Part shown: one piece after another, positions 43,071 through 58,690 of the stretch
How the letters are laid out: each line of letters starts with the position of its first letter
How positions within the stretch are numbered: position 1 is the stretch's first letter
Virus record (IMG/VR): IMGVR_UViG_3300021197_001635
Location: 32,001-96,000 of that record
Length of the DNA: 64,000 nucleotides
Reading direction: 5' to 3' (one strand)
From: a virus
The notes under the pieces: model-generated
Databases searched by the model: none
What the model was told of the DNA's origin: nothing
What the model saw: the letters and a program-made list of their open reading frames with translations, nothing else
Program-made: the position numbers and the translations under genes

Positions 43071-45008
43071 ATGATTGAGTTGCCGACACCCTACCAACAG
43101 TTCATCCATCTATCTAGATATAGTAGATGGTTAGATGAAGAAGGAAGAAGAGAGACTTGGAATGAGACTGTTAGTAGATATATGGGGTTCTTCAAGGAGC
43201 ACTTGGAGAAGACTCTGGGTTATAAGATGAGCGTAAATACCGAAAATACGGTTAAAAATGCTGTCCTCAATCTTGAAGTTATGCCCTCAATGCGATGTCT
43301 AATGACTGCTGGTGATGCATTAAAGAAAGATGCGGTTGCAGGATATAACTGTTCTTATCTGGCAATCAATAGAGTCAGAGCATTTGATGAAGTTCTTTAC
43401 GCCCTGATGTGTGGCACTGGTGTCGGTTTTTCTGTGGAGAGAGAGTATGTATCTAAACTACCCACTATTGCAGAAGAATTTGAAGAATCAGATTCTACTA
43501 TTGTTGTTCAAGATTCAAGAATTGGTTGGTGTAAGGCTTACAGGGAGCTTGTCTCCCTACTTATTACAGGTCGTGTACCAAGATGGGACCTGTCACGTGT
43601 GCGTCCTAGTGGGTCGAGACTTAAGACTTTCGGAGGAAGAAGTTCAGGACCAGAAAGTCTGGAAGATCTATTTAGATTCACGGTGGAAGTCTTTAAGAAA
43701 GCATCTGGCAGAAAACTCACGACTATTGAGTGTCACGATCTCGTATGCAAGATTGCAGAAATTGTAGTGGTTGGTGGTGTGAGACGTTCCGCACTCCTTA
43801 GCCTTTCATCCTTGACAGATGAGAGAATGAGAGATGCCAAGCAGGGACAATGGTGGGTGATTGAACCACAACGTGCATTATCCAACAATTCGGTATGTTA
43901 TAAGGAAAAGCCTGAGATTGGGACCTTCATAGAGGAGTGGTTGGCACTCTACAAGTCCAAATCAGGTGAAAGGGGCATCTTTAATAGAGACTCTGCCAAG
44001 ACCACGGTGTCTAAAATCCAAGGTGGAAGAAGAGATCCCGATCATGACTTCGGTACTAATCCTTGCTCCGAGATTATACTTAGAGACAGAGAATTCTGTA
44101 ATTTGTCAGAAGTGGTTGCAAGAGGAGATGACACGGTAGAGACTCTTAAGGAGAAGGTAAGACTTGCGGCAATCATAGGCACATGGCAGTCTACATTAAC
44201 CGACTTTAGGTATCTATCGGCAGAATGGAAGAAGAATTGTGAAGAGGAAAGACTCTTGGGTGTTTCTATCACGGGAATCATGGATTCTGTTCTTCTTAAT
44301 GGAGACAAGAAAACACTTGCTGCATTGCCTGGGCTACTAGAAGAATTAAGAGATATTGCAGTTAAGACCAATAAGGAGTGGGCATCTAGACTAGGTATCA
44401 ATCCCTCTGCTGCTATCACCTGTGTTAAGCCTTCTGGTACTGTTTCTCAGTTGGTGGATTCTGCATCTGGTATTCATGCTAGACATAATCCATACTATAT
44501 TAGAACTGTGCGTGCTAACGTTAAGGACCCGTTATGCAAATTCATGCAGGACAAGGGGTTCCCTTGTGAACCCTGCCACATGAAGCCTGATACAACCATG
44601 GTGTTCTCATTCCCAGTAGAGTCTCCCAAAAAGGCAATATTCAGACAGGATAAATCAGCCATCGAGCAGTTAGACTTATGGTTATTGTACCAAAAGCACT
44701 GGTGTGAACACAAGCCTTCTATCACGGTTTCGGTCATGGAGGGAGAATGGTTGGACGTTGGCACTTGGGTCTATAATAATTTCGACGATGTATGTGGGGT
44801 ATCATTCCTGCCATTTAGCGATCACTCATATAAGCAAGCACCTTATCAGGACTGTTCCAAAGAAGAATACAAGGTCTTGCTTAAGGAAATGCCCAAGGAT
44901 ATTGATTGGGATGAATTGTGTGCATACGAGAAGGAAGATAACACGGCTGGCAGCCAGACGCTAGCATGCTCTGGGACGTCATGCGAGGTGGTTGACCTGA
45001 CCCCATAA
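43071..45008 (+). CDS. nrdJ: Class II (B12-dependent) ribonucleotide reductase
   Basis: RRETW.ETV.R, PSMR, YNCSY, GGVRRSA, TNPCSEI, TCVKPSGTVSQL, C-terminal C..C pair; no nrdB adjacent. Confidence 0.9.
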   Translation: MIELPTPYQQFIHLSRYSRWLDEEGRRETWNETVSRYMGFFKEHLEKTLGYKMSVNTENTVKNAVLNLEVMPSMRCLMTAGDALKKDAVAGYNCSYLAINRVRAFDEVLYALMCGTGVGFSVEREYVSKLPTIAEEFEESDSTIVVQDSRIGWCKAYRELVSLLITGRVPRWDLSRVRPSGSRLKTFGGRSSGPESLEDLFRFTVEVFKKASGRKLTTIECHDLVCKIAEIVVVGGVRRSALLSLSSLTDERMRDAKQGQWWVIEPQRALSNNSVCYKEKPEIGTFIEEWLALYKSKSGERGIFNRDSAKTTVSKIQGGRRDPDHDFGTNPCSEIILRDREFCNLSEVVARGDDTVETLKEKVRLAAIIGTWQSTLTDFRYLSAEWKKNCEEERLLGVSITGIMDSVLLNGDKKTLAALPGLLEELRDIAVKTNKEWASRLGINPSAAITCVKPSGTVSQLVDSASGIHARHNPYYIRTVRANVKDPLCKFMQDKGFPCEPCHMKPDTTMVFSFPVESPKKAIFRQDKSAIEQLDLWLLYQKHWCEHKPSITVSVMEGEWLDVGTWVYNNFDDVCGVSFLPFSDHSYKQAPYQDCSKEEYKVLLKEMPKDIDWDELCAYEKEDNTAGSQTLACSGTSCEVVDLTP

Positions 45009-45012
45009 ATCT

Positions 45013-45020
45013 TATAAATA
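45013..45020 (+). promoter_or_regulatory. T4-type late promoter TATAAATA
   Basis: Exact motif heading the small-protein/porin operon. Confidence 0.7.
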
Positions 45021-45123
45021 TTCGCTTACGGGTTAAATTAACCCTAGGGGGACACGTTGTCCCCACCATTTTTAAATGGGGACTGGAGTTGGTCCCTATT
45101 GCTCAAACACAAGGAGAAATCTT

Positions 45124-45318
45124 ATGAGCACCAAGAAAGAGTCTTGCCCCGCGATGGGATGCAGCGACGCAGTTACGCGTACCTTAGGTAAGGTCGGAGT
45201 ATGTCGCAGCATGCTAATCACATTAGCACTACTTCCATACTCATGGAACGGTGTAGTCTGGATTGCTGATGCACTTCATTCACTTTGGAATGCTGCCACT
45301 AACGCAGTTGGAACCTGA
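45124..45318 (+). CDS. Small hydrophobic protein
   Basis: RBS AAGGAGA, 64 aa, hydrophobic segment MLITLALLPYSWNGVVWI. Confidence 0.65.
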   Translation: MSTKKESCPAMGCSDAVTRTLGKVGVCRSMLITLALLPYSWNGVVWIADALHSLWNAATNAVGT

Positions 45319-45348
45319 ATCGCTTAAGCGATTCAAGGAGATAATCCT

Positions 45349-46518
45349 ATGAATATTTCAAAGAAAAAGTGGATGATGTACGGTGGTATTGCCGCTGCTA
45401 TTCTAATCGCTTCGGTCGCGGTTGCTGATGGACCTTCATATGAAGACCTTCAGGCCCGTCTAGACGCAGCAGAGGCAAAGATCGCACAGATTGATTCCGA
45501 CCGTGCTCCAAGCTGGTTGGAAAGCAGACGTAGTGAAGAAGTTCAATCGCTAGTGCAAGATGTCCTTGCCGATGCAGAAGCACGAACGATGATGCAGGGA
45601 GACAATTCCCCAGTCACCGTTAATCTTCATGGATTTGCCATCACCCGTTGGGATTACAACAATGGTGGTGGTGTGGCAAGAAATAATGAATTCAGCATTC
45701 CATATGCTCGACTTGAAGTCTCAGGAGAGATCCTAGGCAAGGTTGGGTACTATGTCAGTGGTGAATTCAGTGACTACACGAATGGCAGCATGGATCTTGT
45801 CGACGCCTACCTCACAATGGATGTGGGTCTGGGAGTGGACATGATGGCTGGTCAGTTCGTGACTGCATTCTACCGAGGTTTCACTGATTCACCATTGGAT
45901 CAGATCGCGGGAGAGTACAGTATTCTTGCTACCACTTTTGGTCAAGGACGATCGCAGGGCCTTCAATTCACCAAAGATTTTGGTTGGTTGGATCTCTCTG
46001 CCTCTTATAACGACGGTTTCGACACCAGCAATTCATTCATGATGGACAATGACTATGGTGTCAGTGTTCGTGGTGATGTGGATTTTGGTGCTGGATTCCG
46101 TGCAGGTGCAGCCTATGCTTATCAGTCAGAACTTGAAGACTACGGTACTTACACCGTGGACTTCGGATATTCTACCGATAAGCTAGATGCACAGGTCTCA
46201 TGGGTTTCTGCCGACTATGCTGTCGGTGGATACAGTGACAACTATGGCTTCAACGCTAGTGTTGCTTATCGTTGTGCTGCCGACTTTACTGGTTTTGTTA
46301 ATTATCAATGGGGCAAGCTAGGAGTTGCTTCAGAAGATCTTAACGTGCTAGAAATCGGTGCTAACTACGATATCAACGAATACGTTCGTTGGACCACCAC
46401 CTTGGGTTATGCATTTGATGCTGTAGCCCCAGAGTGGAATACCGCTCGTTCTGGATGGAACAGCGGTTCGGAGAATGGTCAGTATCTACTGCGTACACAA
46501 CTCAGTGTAAGCTTCTGA
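45349..46518 (+). CDS. Outer-membrane beta-barrel porin (OprO/P-like, planctomycete type)
   Basis: Signal peptide, coiled coil, WL...R.EE...LV.DVLADA..R motif, alternating beta strands, C-terminal RTQLSVSF. Confidence 0.8.
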   Translation: MNISKKKWMMYGGIAAAILIASVAVADGPSYEDLQARLDAAEAKIAQIDSDRAPSWLESRRSEEVQSLVQDVLADAEARTMMQGDNSPVTVNLHGFAITRWDYNNGGGVARNNEFSIPYARLEVSGEILGKVGYYVSGEFSDYTNGSMDLVDAYLTMDVGLGVDMMAGQFVTAFYRGFTDSPLDQIAGEYSILATTFGQGRSQGLQFTKDFGWLDLSASYNDGFDTSNSFMMDNDYGVSVRGDVDFGAGFRAGAAYAYQSELEDYGTYTVDFGYSTDKLDAQVSWVSADYAVGGYSDNYGFNASVAYRCAADFTGFVNYQWGKLGVASEDLNVLEIGANYDINEYVRWTTTLGYAFDAVAPEWNTARSGWNSGSENGQYLLRTQLSVSF

Positions 46519-46552
46519 TCTGTACGGGGGTCTCACCCTCGACACTTCACAG

Positions 46553-46586
46553 GAAGACCCCTGGCTCAGGCTGGGGGTCTTCTTTT
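46553..46586 (+). terminator. Rho-independent terminator
   Basis: GAAGACCCC...GGGGTCTTC stem followed by TTTT. Confidence 0.85.
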
Positions 46587-46622
46587 ATATACCCTAACGC
46601 CTGTTAGGTATTTCTAGATATG

Positions 46623-46713
46623 CCCCTTCCTGATATCCCCCTTTTGATATCAGGAAGGGGTATTGATACCACCCGTTGTATATCTCCTAGGGGGTATACC
46701 ACCCGTTGTATAT
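46623..46713. repeat. 15-bp perfect inverted repeat plus 18-bp direct repeat
   Basis: CCCCTTCCTGATATC(46623-46637)/GATATCAGGAAGGGG(46646-46660); ATACCACCCGTTGTATAT at 46666 and 46696. Confidence 0.85.
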
Positions 46714-46736
46714 GAAGCCTTTTGGTAGGTAATATA

Positions 46737-46765
46737 TTGACAGAAGAATCCGCCTGTGGTACAAT
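46737..46765 (+). promoter_or_regulatory. Sigma70-type early promoter, probably leaderless transcript
   Basis: TTGACA-17 nt-TACAAT with extended TG; ATG 6 nt after the -10 box. Confidence 0.85.
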
Positions 46766-46771
46766 GGAAAT

Positions 46772-52192: not shown

Positions 52193-52215
<23 letters not shown>
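51934..52215 (+). CDS. Hypothetical protein
   Basis: ORF with RBS GAGGA after the tRNA pair. Confidence 0.55.
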
Positions 52216-54296
<2,081 letters not shown>

Positions 54297-54317
54297 TAGT
54301 ATTCTGAGATATATTCA

Positions 54318-54670
54318 GCAGCCATGTATGTGCATTCCCAGTATTGGGAGCCATAGCCGTCCCAGTGATTTAGACAGCCGCTAGTGTGCAACACGAGATT
54401 ATGCTAATAGCTCGGCATATCGTGTAACAAATCAAACAAATTTAAATACGTGCAAACGCCTCACGCCGCAAAGCCGCTGTGTGGGCGTTTGTTGTATCAT
54501 GAGCTAGAACAAATCAAATCAAATCGAAGTGCTCATGGATTTTACCAGGTGAACTGTTTGTGCATGTGTGCAAATCTGTGCACATTAGCTTTTGTGTAAT
54601 TAAGAATGCAACGCCGCATGCACGGCTGTTAGTACTGTCAGAATCAATTGAATCAGTGCAACATGGCTGC
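54318..54670 (+). ncRNA. Putative large structured non-coding RNA (unassigned)
   Basis: Nested long-range helices with G-U pairs favouring the + strand, in a gene-free gap (see findings). Confidence 0.55.
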
Positions 54671-54885
54671 GGGCGCATAACCTTTATAATAATTGCAATA
54701 ATAAAAACAAAAAAAAATAGAGACTGGTGTATCCATGTATATCTGCAGTATGGATGTATATCTGGTGTATTTGAATGTAATGCACGCCTACGAAATATAT
54801 GGGGGGATATTCGCGGAGCGAGATATATACCCCTAGGGAACCCCCCCAACTAAACCACCCGATTCTCTGTGAGGCTCTGATTCCT

Positions 54886-54893
54886 TATAAATA
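54886..54893 (+). promoter_or_regulatory. T4-type late promoter TATAAATA
   Basis: Exact motif upstream of the putative internal-protein cluster. Confidence 0.65.
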
Positions 54894-54984
54894 CATGCAG
54901 AAGACAATATACACCCCCTCGGCGGGGGGAAAACATATACTACCCAAGGGACCCACAATTTTTCCTAAAAAGGATATTTGAAAA

Positions 54985-55626
54985 ATGACAATCCAAAACA
55001 GAATTTACATGCAGAAGTTAATGGATAGCTTGAAAAGAGCAGAAGAAGATTTACTAAAGGAAAATATCGCGGGTATGCCCCCTGCTGGCGGTGGATCTCC
55101 TTTAGGTTCGATGCCCCCAGGCGGAATGAGACGTATCCCTGGAATGGGTAGTACACCATTCCGTAGTAAAAGGAATCCTGGAAGTAATACCGATCAAGTA
55201 CAGGGTGATAGATTCCCTGATAAGATGGATGTGATCAGTCAAGATGGTGGAGTAGGATTCCCACCATCATGGTGGTCAGAAGAAAACGGACCTTTCCAAG
55301 ATCAGACGCACCAGATGGCTGCATGGTTCCAGTGGTTGCATAATCATGGTGGACTCGAAGCATTCTTGCAGGGATACCAAGGTCAAGTCACCCCCGCTAT
55401 GGAATATTTCTGGGAGAACCTTGGTTATCTCTTGAATAACATGGAAAACTATTACGGGTGGGATCCAGATGGATGGAGTCCTTACATAACTGGTTATTTC
55501 AATCAGTTAATGGGTGCTATTAATAACTACAATGCTCATATGGCTGGTGGTTACATAGATAATCCCGATCCTTCCATCGACGGTGGGTTGACCAATGGAC
55601 TTGGTGCACCTCCTGCTGGTGGTTGA
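54985..55626 (+). CDS. Hypothetical low-complexity protein (possible head internal protein)
   Basis: G/P/W-rich ORF; LLKE possible prohead-protease site. Confidence 0.55.
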   Translation: MTIQNRIYMQKLMDSLKRAEEDLLKENIAGMPPAGGGSPLGSMPPGGMRRIPGMGSTPFRSKRNPGSNTDQVQGDRFPDKMDVISQDGGVGFPPSWWSEENGPFQDQTHQMAAWFQWLHNHGGLEAFLQGYQGQVTPAMEYFWENLGYLLNNMENYYGWDPDGWSPYITGYFNQLMGAINNYNAHMAGGYIDNPDPSIDGGLTNGLGAPPAGG

Positions 55627-56976: not shown

Positions 56977-56997
56977 GGTATTCAAACCTATTGAGAT

Positions 56998-57005
56998 TAT
57001 AAATA
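56998..57005 (+). promoter_or_regulatory. T4-type late promoter TATAAATA
   Basis: Exact motif, intergenic, upstream of a structured element. Confidence 0.7.
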
Positions 57006-57009
57006 ATGT

Positions 57010-57282
57010 GTGAAAGGAAACAATAATAATCAATGATTAGAGATACCTCTTCACAATCAAATACCATAACAAGACAGGACGGTGTGCCATGCGAAAGCGG
57101 GTACGCCGTCCTTTCTTATAAGGATTTCTCCTACGGTCCGAGCAAGATAGGCAGTGCGCCAGTCGTTACGCTATCCATGCAAGGTGAGGGTGTATCAGAC
57201 CCTCACTAAGGAACTTCGCTACCTTTGGACCGTCATTCATAGTAGGCAACCCCTTGACCTTTGTCAGGGGGTTGTCTTTTTT
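57010..57282 (+). ncRNA. Putative structured small RNA with segments antisense to 23S rRNA domain IV
   Basis: Late promoter, GAAA-capped hairpin 57076-57112, closing stem 57133-57142/57223-57233, terminator; 57152-57181 and 57208-57233 are reverse complements of conserved 23S sequence. Confidence 0.65.
57245..57282 (+). terminator. Rho-independent terminator
   Basis: GGCAACCCCTTGAC-CTTT-GTCAGGGGGTTGTC followed by T6. Confidence 0.85.
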
Positions 57283-57319
57283 ATATATAAAGGAGAACAT
57301 ACCCTAGGAGACTCCCTAT

Positions 57320-58690
57320 ATGAAGAATTTCAAACAGTTTGTCTTGACAGAGGCTAGAGGATTCTTCATGGGTCACCACATAGGTGATGATGTGGTGTTC
57401 AAATCAGGATCTTATGCTAGTGCTGGGTCTTTCACCATTGTTTCTCATGACATGGTATCGGACATTCACTCCAAGGTGGATGGTTATGTTCAAAAAGGTT
57501 ATGAGGTTGCACAACAATGGACTGGTCCAGATAAAGAGATCACTGATACTAGTAAGGTAGATAGTTATAATGATGGTAGAATCATAGTATTAGATAGCCA
57601 GAAGAAAAAAGTCATAGTGGTCATATTTGGCAAGGGTAAAAATTCTGGTGCATCACCTAGAAGATTCAACCTTAGATACTCAACAAGCACAGAATCGCTA
57701 GACCTTAAACCTCAATCATTGGGTCTGAAAGAGAAGCCCTATGGTATGGATTCTTTCGCTAATACTGTAATAAATGCGGTCCTCGACAGGAAAGATTTAG
57801 ACCCAGCAGTCAAGGGTTATCTCGAACTTCTAGTTGAGTATTATTGGAATAATTATAGCAATGAAGTGGCAAACGACATCAAGAATGAGTATGGTGATGT
57901 CCTCAGTAGCATGCCCATGGGTCAGATTAAGAAGAACTTCGGTGAAATAATAGGTCCCTTAGCAATTCTTGCAAGCAAATCCGTACTGTTCAAATCAATG
58001 AAATTCAATAAAAGAGACAAAATACTCTTGCCTTTAAGGGGTAACGAGGAACTGGTAGACTTCTATCTTGTGAAAGACGGGAGACAAATACCTTTCTCTG
58101 CCAAGTCTGGAAGATCTACTACCAACTTGGTAAAGCCAGGCAATATAGTGTCACTGATTGATGCTAACCCCTCCTTCAAGAGGAAATACGGTAGGTCTCT
58201 GGAAGTCAAGGTTATGAAAGACCTTGCCAGCAACGTAGCAACTGATGGACCCATGGTAGCAGCATATAACCTTAACAAATCTATCAAGGAATTCAAGAAG
58301 ATCTCCAAGGAGATGCTAGACCATTGGACTTCTACCTCCAGTAGGAAGGGCAGAGATTGGAAGTATATCCCCGAGTTATATGATGACTATGCTTCGGCTA
58401 TCGGATTGAACACCAGCGGAAGAAAGAAACCAACGTTTGGTGAAATACTCTATTACACCGAAACAACCCTCGCTAGAGCAAGCAAGGGTGGGATATTAGA
58501 CTACTCAGAGATGTTCAATGAGGTGGTAGGTGGTGCAGTCAACTACATCAACCTAGTCAAGATGGATAAAAACGGTCTACCAGTGTGGGAGACCTCAGAA
58601 GGTGGAAGATCAACTGCCCATTTGAGAACTAAAAATGGAACTACTAGGATCGCAACAGACAAAGTTGGTTTACAAGTACATACAGGGTAA
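57320..58690 (+). CDS. Putative PD-(D/E)XK nuclease-like protein with capsid-targeting-like N-terminus
   Basis: MKNFKQFVLTE leader; FGEI.GP, P..GNEELVDF...FSAKSG. Confidence 0.5.
   Translation: MKNFKQFVLTEARGFFMGHHIGDDVVFKSGSYASAGSFTIVSHDMVSDIHSKVDGYVQKGYEVAQQWTGPDKEITDTSKVDSYNDGRIIVLDSQKKKVIVVIFGKGKNSGASPRRFNLRYSTSTESLDLKPQSLGLKEKPYGMDSFANTVINAVLDRKDLDPAVKGYLELLVEYYWNNYSNEVANDIKNEYGDVLSSMPMGQIKKNFGEIIGPLAILASKSVLFKSMKFNKRDKILLPLRGNEELVDFYLVKDGRQIPFSAKSGRSTTNLVKPGNIVSLIDANPSFKRKYGRSLEVKVMKDLASNVATDGPMVAAYNLNKSIKEFKKISKEMLDHWTSTSSRKGRDWKYIPELYDDYASAIGLNTSGRKKPTFGEILYYTETTLARASKGGILDYSEMFNEVVGGAVNYINLVKMDKNGLPVWETSEGGRSTAHLRTKNGTTRIATDKVGLQVHTG

Follow-up and report, generated by a model that had tools for sequence, protein, structure and literature searches.

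The stretch at positions 54318-54670 of the analysed phage DNA is a real, non-coding, single-copy element. We read it tentatively, with a probability of about 0.4, as the structured 3' untranslated region of an early operon, a terminator-insulator that lies in a variable slot of the genome. The window, by which we mean the whole analysed stretch of 64,000 nucleotides, covers bases 32001-96000 of a 136,012-base IMG/VR virus record (genome G000). The original prediction had placed the element outside coding sequence, between early-type and late genes, and on this we agree. It lies in the gap 54297-54984, which with 688 nt is the largest in the window between ORFs of at least 100 aa. The small ORFs in this gap gave no family match above the cut-off (DUF1636 reached 18.4 bits, the cut-off being 31.6).

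PHROG matches of the phage include a family-B DNA polymerase, a gp46-like SbcC nuclease, a DnaB helicase, a ribonucleotide reductase and tail fibres. The best polymerase matches are T4-like cyanophages (48-49%). Because of these similarities we assign the phage, uncultured and marine, to the T4-like dsDNA myoviruses. The sole related lineage found in the scans of viral contigs, metagenomes and genome contigs is G001 (loci L002, L009, L017, L022 and L023), which is collinear with G000 over most of its length at 65-82% nucleotide identity. Terminal direct overlaps were found in G000 (148 nt at 98.6%) and in G001 (116 nt at 99%), and each contig spans the ends of the other. Since both contigs have such overlaps, each is probably a complete genome of about 136 kb, circularly permuted; despite the overlaps, they are labelled linear and 75% complete.

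The + strand carries almost all ORFs of at least 100 aa in the window and all convincing genes. The features of the gap and its neighbours are collected in Table 1. Two auxiliary genes of purine salvage, of the GMP-reductase/IMPDH family and of adenosine/adenine deaminase, adjoin at 52193-54296. Among the best 80 of 555 bacterial deaminase loci, the nearest comes from a single-cell genome of the Pelagibacteraceae (69%). It is no more than a hint at the host, because many phyla reach 60-66%.

Table 1. Genes, structures and shared modules in and around the gap 54297-54984 (window positions)
Feature	Position	Strand	Basis or remark
IMPDH/GMP-reductase family gene, precedes deaminase	52193-53290	+	family match
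Adenosine/adenine deaminase gene, last of the upstream, apparently early unit	53238-54296	+	PF00962, E 7e-92
5' shared module	54305-54380	+	resembles sequence before G001 hsp20 cassette
H1 5' arm	54318-54327	+	pairs with 54661-54670; inside 14-nt stretch missing from G001
H4-closed domain, holds hairpins A, B and C	54380-54589	+	11-bp helix 54380-90/54579-89
Hairpin A, two 6-bp segments	54391-54425	+	-11.4 kcal/mol alone; probability about 0.4
Unpaired C/A-rich stretch, first AACAAATCAAA, then TTTAAATA	54426-54445	+	sequence, MFE
Hairpin B, candidate intrinsic terminator	54446-54497	+	-27.3 kcal/mol; probability 0.93-1.00
Hairpin C, 7-bp stem, 26-nt C/A-rich loop	54498-54537	+	loop: second AACAAATCAAA and (CAAAT)3
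Two small alternative hairpins	54557-54599	+	terminator-like site 54564-54585, then TAGCTTTTGT
3' shared module (CAGA.T..CAATTGA.TCA..GGCTGC)	54638-54690	+	contains H1 3' arm 54661-54670
A-run, then duplicated 17-mer motif GTATCCATGTATATCTG / GTATGGATGTATATCTG	54693-54768	+	common to G001
G-rich block ATATATGGGGGGATAT.CGCGG	54795-54829	+	81% over 37 nt with G001; two copies there
TATAAATA late-type promoter of gene 54985-55626	54886-54893	+	octamer match
213-aa ORF downstream of gap	54985-55626	+	without family; TATAAATA at 54886 upstream

The octamer TATAAATA, which we take to be the T4 late promoter, has 19 copies on the + strand of the genome and 2 on the - strand. None lies between 45013 and 54886, and the promoter scan found no sigma70-like promoter on either strand in 54000-55200. 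Therefore the element can be read only from upstream. A strong sigma70-like promoter (TTGACA-17-TACAAT with TG) is located at 46737-46765, and between 46772 and 54296 the + strand holds one weak terminator-like site and no strong one. With this layout, the element is most simply read as the 3' end of the unit that starts there. The sequence TTTAAATA at 54441 differs from the late promoter by one mismatch. As a variant late promoter it is unsupported, being present in a single + strand copy in the genome versus 19 copies of TATAAATA.

Non-coding blocks common to G001 fill 54693-54830, between the element and the late promoter, and no sigma70-like promoter was called in them. In the RNA run X20, a marine metatranscriptome, a contig of 192 nt with 6 differences (54743-54934) spans the G-rich block and crosses TATAAATA at 54886. 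It could be read-through RNA or DNA carry-over. Two further contigs of this run touch only the A-run and have unrelated loose ends. No contig of this run lies on the element, and run X4 gave no contig here at all; such uncovered stretches prove nothing.

Hairpin B is the strongest local hairpin and the most certain local structure of the element, which argues for a terminator. It has an A-tract on its 5' side and a U-rich tail, GUUUGUUGUAU, on its 3' side, and at -27.3 kcal/mol it counts as a stable GC-rich hairpin. However, its U-tract (7 U in 11) is weaker than those of the clear terminators 46551-46590 and 57244-57277, whose last bases are UUUU(UU)AUAUA. The tail is partly paired with the A-tract, and the terminator scan called 54564-54585, not hairpin B.

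The long-range helices of the original prediction fared unequally. H1, GCAGCCATGT (54318-27) with ACATGGCTGC (54661-70), is a perfect 10-bp complement as had been read in the sequence, and H4, GCTAGTGTGCA (54380-90) with TGCACATTAGC (54579-89), is a helix of 11 bp with one G.T. The pair probability of H4 was 0.97-1.00 in four contexts, and that of H1 was 0.98 alone, 0.65 in 54200-54800 and 0.12 in 54100-54984. For H2 (54339-47/54629-37) and H3 (54354-60/54622-28) the bare sequence shows complementary arms, but the pair probability of each was at most 0.05 in all contexts tried. As an alternative to these two, RNAfold paired 54331-37 with 54604-10 and formed a local hairpin at 54342-67. The three enclosed hairpins described earlier (54391-54425, 54452-54492 and 54497-54538) are present in the sequence, and hairpin C has a probability of at least 0.97 in every context. 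The repeat AACAAATCAAA was likewise found at 54426 and 54508, both copies being unpaired in the minimum free energy (MFE) structure. These two copies of the 11-nt motif are the only ones in the 136-kb genome.

When the element was compared with shuffled sequences, as the original prediction had proposed, both strands folded better than the shuffles. The RNA of the + strand had an MFE of -125.4 kcal/mol (z -5.24) and that of the - strand -112.0 kcal/mol (z -3.58), with 0 of 100 shuffles reaching either value; an independent set of 120 dinucleotide shuffles gave the element z -4.70. The difference between the strands disappears under DNA parameters (-60.0 and -60.2, z -3.6 and -3.2). Thus, the advantage of the + strand is specific to RNA and comes from G.U pairs, which make up 11 of the 108 pairs in its MFE structure. 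Such an advantage fits any RNA reading and does not single out a terminator. Local hairpins with a span of at most 60 nt gave z -2.7 by themselves. On the + strand the long-range pairs gained -26.4 kcal against -17.0 +/- 4.6 kcal in shuffles (z -2.0, 3/120), and on the - strand the same 120-shuffle comparison showed no significant gain. This gain, like an H4 probability of at least 0.97, is needless for a plain terminator.

We also scored 353-nt segments taken every 120 nt over the whole genome, with the MFE regressed on GC content. The residual z of the element was -3.24 and 5 of the 1131 segments were lower, a score flattered by placing the element at its own best boundaries. The segment 46361-46713, mostly porin-like coding sequence, beats it with z -4.97. 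Because a protein-coding stretch scores better, low energy alone is weak evidence. Three other gaps of the same phage reach z -3.4 to -7.5, and other gaps at the ends of units are equally hairpin-rich, as would be expected if the element were one more unit end. Thus, the structure signal of the element is real, but it is not exceptional for this phage.

Near-identical copies of the element are visible only through contigs of two DNA metagenome runs, X1 and X3, which come from two studies; their depth is below 5 and strains are possibly mixed. The X1 contig covers 54261-54636 and differs by 54533 T>C, 54606-08 ATG>GCA and an 8-nt deletion at 54559. The deletion, seen in both X1 and X3, takes one copy of the TGTGCA tandem and removes a hairpin arm. 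The X3 contigs have no change in 54299-54520 and show 13 substitutions and 9 gap letters in 54544-54847, including 54620 G>A and 54655 A>G. It turned out that all changes within the element, six substitutions and one deletion, lie in its 3' third (3' of 54532), and its 5' 215 nt are unchanged in both runs. In X1 there are no changes in 54261-54532 versus 4 substitutions and the 8-nt deletion in 54533-54636 (Fisher p 0.006; p 0.02 when counted as events), and in X3 the counts within the element are 0/203 versus 5/127 (p 0.008). Since all variation begins downstream of hairpin B, constraint apparently stops roughly at the end of this hairpin, and such a fall fits a terminator.

The same variants give the fold no support. 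Relative to the MFE structure, three of the six substitutions break pairs, two lead to G.U and one is unpaired; the change 54533 T>C in hairpin C turns an A-U pair into A.C. The absence of change in H1, H4 and hairpins A and B is uninformative either way. The covariation check suggested with the original prediction found no homologues of the core to compare, and among the natural variants none of the changes is compensatory.

On the terminator-insulator reading, an early unit would run from the promoter at 46737 through the peptidase gene, the tRNAs, the GMP reductase and the adenosine deaminase, with the element as its 3' end. The polymerase leaving the deaminase gene would transcribe the 5' module and hairpin A and would be halted, at least partly, at hairpin B. 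The hairpins in 54498-54599 may serve as back-up stops. The folded 3' end would shield the operon mRNA from 3' exonucleases, and the stops would prevent early read-through from entering the late module, which begins on the same strand at TATAAATA 54886. H1 and H4 would matter only in read-through transcripts, or they may be fortuitous. The 257-nt core between the shared flanks would be lineage-specific filler at the site where G001 has its hsp20 cassette.

This site was compared with G001. By blastn, G001 shares only flanks: 54332-54380 (77.6%), 54684-54768 (74%) and 54795-54829 (81%). The first of these matches L002 7239-7287 over 49 nt and includes a run of 16/16 identical positions, and the identity of the 5' module is at the background level between the two genomes. 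No ORF is kept in frame in this module because of a 14-nt versus a 4-nt indel, and H1 is not conserved, since its 5' arm sits in the 14 nt that G001 lacks. A semi-global alignment of the 3' module with the G001 sequence after hsp20 gave z 3.0 (3/300 shuffles). Between the shared flanks G001 has a TATAAATA late promoter, an hsp20 gene (PF00011, E 2e-17) and a terminator hairpin. Between the 3' end of the deaminase gene and 57106, blastn gave no HSP of at least 150 nt with G001, unlike in the rest of the neighbourhood, and the gene order around the slot is rearranged. This interval is hyperplastic as passages of PMC4122927 apply the term to T4-type phages.

The homologue search returned no relative of the core from any collection searched. 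An nhmmer search with the 257-nt core matched nothing anywhere in G001 at E<=10 and gave no second copy in the 136-kb genome of the phage itself, and distant blastn found nothing in GenBank phages. The deaminase as a query gave 6 viral loci. The downstream sequence was read in L002, L004 and L024, L003 ends inside the gene, and L025 and L026 were compared by blastn only. The 213-aa and 456-aa downstream proteins had no relatives among viral contigs. A 16-mer scan of viral contigs gave 14 loci (2 of the G001 lineage and 12 in unrelated coding sequence); all 3 loci of the 18-mer scan, all 3 of the scan with the G-block pattern and the 1 locus of the metagenome pattern scan belong to the G001 lineage. 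Four gaps compared by blastn with L024-L106, which include the best 80 of 555 bacterial deaminase relatives, gave matches of at most 34 nt with E of at least 0.07. A keyword search of the open-access literature found no description of the element.

The element may also be a functionless spacer, debris of the turnover of cargo such as the hsp20 cassette in a hyperplastic region, with hairpins that are partly relics of old terminators or leaders and partly the work of chance. We consider this somewhat unlikely. The lost alignment up to 57106 amid otherwise collinear sequence, the rearranged gene order, the unique core and the freely varying 3' third all speak for it. The core also weakly resembles the leader and the beginning of hsp20 in G001 (score 47 vs 38.2 +/- 5.9, 35/400) and the G001 terminator (185/500), neither resemblance being significant, and we rejected the core as a remnant of the G001 hsp20 cassette on these alignments. 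A decayed hsp20 gene in the core was rejected as well: PF00011 is absent from the phage's own genome, and tblastn with the G001 Hsp20 gave nothing below E 1. The missing hsp20 trace weighs against debris. So does the compactness of phage genomes, in which a 350-nt relic folding at z -5.2 is unexpected, and so does the constancy of the 5' 215 nt in two other runs from two studies.

The original prediction also offered a novel large ncRNA. In its present form this reading holds that a lineage-specific structured RNA, either about 350 nt or the 210-nt H4 domain, is cut from the operon transcript and acts in trans. It would, for instance, be a sponge or a scaffold with repeated C/A-rich loops, AACAAAUCAAA and (CAAAU)3, on which an RNA-binding protein could settle. 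The z of -5.2 on the + strand with its RNA-specific bias and the long-range gain point this way. The same is true of the robustness of H4 and hairpins B and C across contexts, of the two unpaired 11-mers unique in the genome, of the H1 and H4 arms left unchanged in the variants, and of the presence of a better-supported conserved RNA 2.5 kb downstream in the same phage. The step from a stable fold to a new large RNA is nevertheless unsupported. The core has no relatives in the collections searched, no change is compensatory, three of six natural substitutions break MFE pairs and the 8-nt deletion takes a hairpin arm. Scans for promoters of the sigma70-like and TATAAATA types gave it none of its own, H2 and H3 are outside the ensemble, H1 fades with context, and the coding stretch 46361-46713 folds better. 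We therefore regard an RNA acting in trans as unlikely. Still lower stands its specific version, in which the H4 domain, with or without H1, would be an orphan RNA that replaced the hsp20 cassette. In that version the two C/A-rich strands, set between rigid hairpins, would titrate a host or phage RNA-binding protein at the time of the early-to-late switch.

The conserved RNA downstream lies in the gap 56977-57319, which folds at z -7.5. Its block 57134-57235 is identical with G001 at 115/121 positions, has unalignable flanks and is followed by the strong terminator 57244-57277. RNAalifold predicted a three-way junction with a closing helix of 9 bp. Five of six substitutions fall in pairs, all of them pair-keeping, and one is a complete change from A-U to G-C. 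The block matches nothing in Rfam. Its position, after TATAAATA 56998 and before the late gene 57320-58690, resembles that of a riboswitch-type leader. It overlaps a 58-aa ORF whose five codon differences in the conserved part are all non-synonymous. We regard 57134-57277 as a candidate conserved structured RNA; on the comparison with G001 it appears better supported than the element.

Its high identity may partly reflect recent transfer, because the two genomes exchange patches such as the porin cassette (94%). This cassette, 44904-46594, comprises a late promoter (45013), a structured leader of 336 nt, the gene itself, which is phosphate-porin-like (PF07396), and a terminator. Over 1,691 nt its identity to G001 is 94%, compared with 65-82% elsewhere, which suggests a recent exchange between the two lineages. 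A composite resembling PeSLs lies at 46519-46771, with two long perfect hairpins, one of them a textbook terminator, two copies of ATACCACCCGTTGTATAT and the sigma70-like promoter TTGACA-17-TACAAT. A second copy is found at genome positions 108,620-108,784 (76620-76784 on the window scale, outside the window). The 48-nt repeat part is 98% identical at this second site, and pieces are also present at several G001 sites.

The other proposal of the original prediction, an origin of replication or an ssDNA fold that forms a primer, is very improbable. The inverted repeats do fold with DNA parameters too (z -3.6 and -3.2), downstream of the element come a long A-run and conserved motifs, and there are two 11-nt direct repeats. 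But the phage is a T4-like dsDNA myovirus, a group not known to have an ssDNA stage. The cumulative GC skew peaks at 118 kb of the genome, and the element lies at 86.3 kb. The repeat has only two copies, the A-run is outside the element, and nothing at the DNA level matches the RNA strand asymmetry of 13.4 kcal/mol. Equally improbable is an insertion in the slot, either a mobile element of the miniature inverted-repeat kind or a mobile regulatory cassette of the PeSL type. Inverted repeats (H4 11 bp, H1 10 bp) do enclose the core, it replaces other cargo between shared flanks, and PeSL-like composite terminator/promoter repeats occur elsewhere in the phage, but this reading is largely refuted by copy number (one in 136 kb and none in G001), and neither end pair has a target-site duplication nor is there a promoter inside.

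If the terminator-insulator reading is true, the element shows how early and late units are separated in a T4-like phage with genes on one strand, and that hyperplastic slots can hold folded non-coding filler in place of genes. This would help annotation and would not be surprising. If the ncRNA reading is true, the phage has a new RNA whose repeated loops make an unusual design, but its family counts a single member. In either case, several gaps and one coding stretch reach similar folding scores, and thus energy alone does not single out RNA genes.

Among known RNAs, Rfam 15 at gathering thresholds recognised only 3 tRNAs in the whole window, and at E<=10 in 54200-55000 one chance miRNA match (54725-54790), outside the element. 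ARAGORN found four tRNAs, all outside the element. The opinion that it is not tmRNA, RNase P or a group I/II intron is borne out by the Rfam check, which included ROOL, GOLLD, manA, wcaG and ribozymes and gave no match. Like ROOL and GOLLD, as parts of PMC12286853 describe them, the element is multi-branched, several hundred nucleotides long and found in a phage genome with tRNA genes. Unlike them, it is shorter, has no Rfam match at E<=10 and is without family and covariation. The manA and wcaG motifs are structured RNAs of T4-like cyanophages, and passages of PMC2864571 report manA RNAs in 5' UTRs, among them those of ibpA (hsp20-type) chaperone genes. An hsp20 gene is also the cargo of the slot in G001. 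However, RF01745 and RF01761 had no match in the window or the G001 hsp20 leader, and the element, unlike these motifs, precedes no gene that it could regulate. PeSLs, according to passages of PMC4122927, are small, have many copies per genome and carry an early promoter; the same passages treat the hyperplastic regions of T4-type phages, and PMC2839356 is a second paper on such cassettes. The element shares their setting, a variable T4-like region with short shared intergenic flanks around unrelated cargo in two relatives, but it is single-copy and without a promoter. Intrinsic terminators and structured 3' UTRs are a further comparison. The element differs from intrinsic terminators in its length of 350 nt, its multi-branched form, its weak U-tract and the long-range helices that enclose the hairpin. 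What it has in common with them is a GC-rich hairpin flanked by an A-tract and a U-rich tail, which closes a run of genes on the same strand and stands directly before a promoter of different timing.
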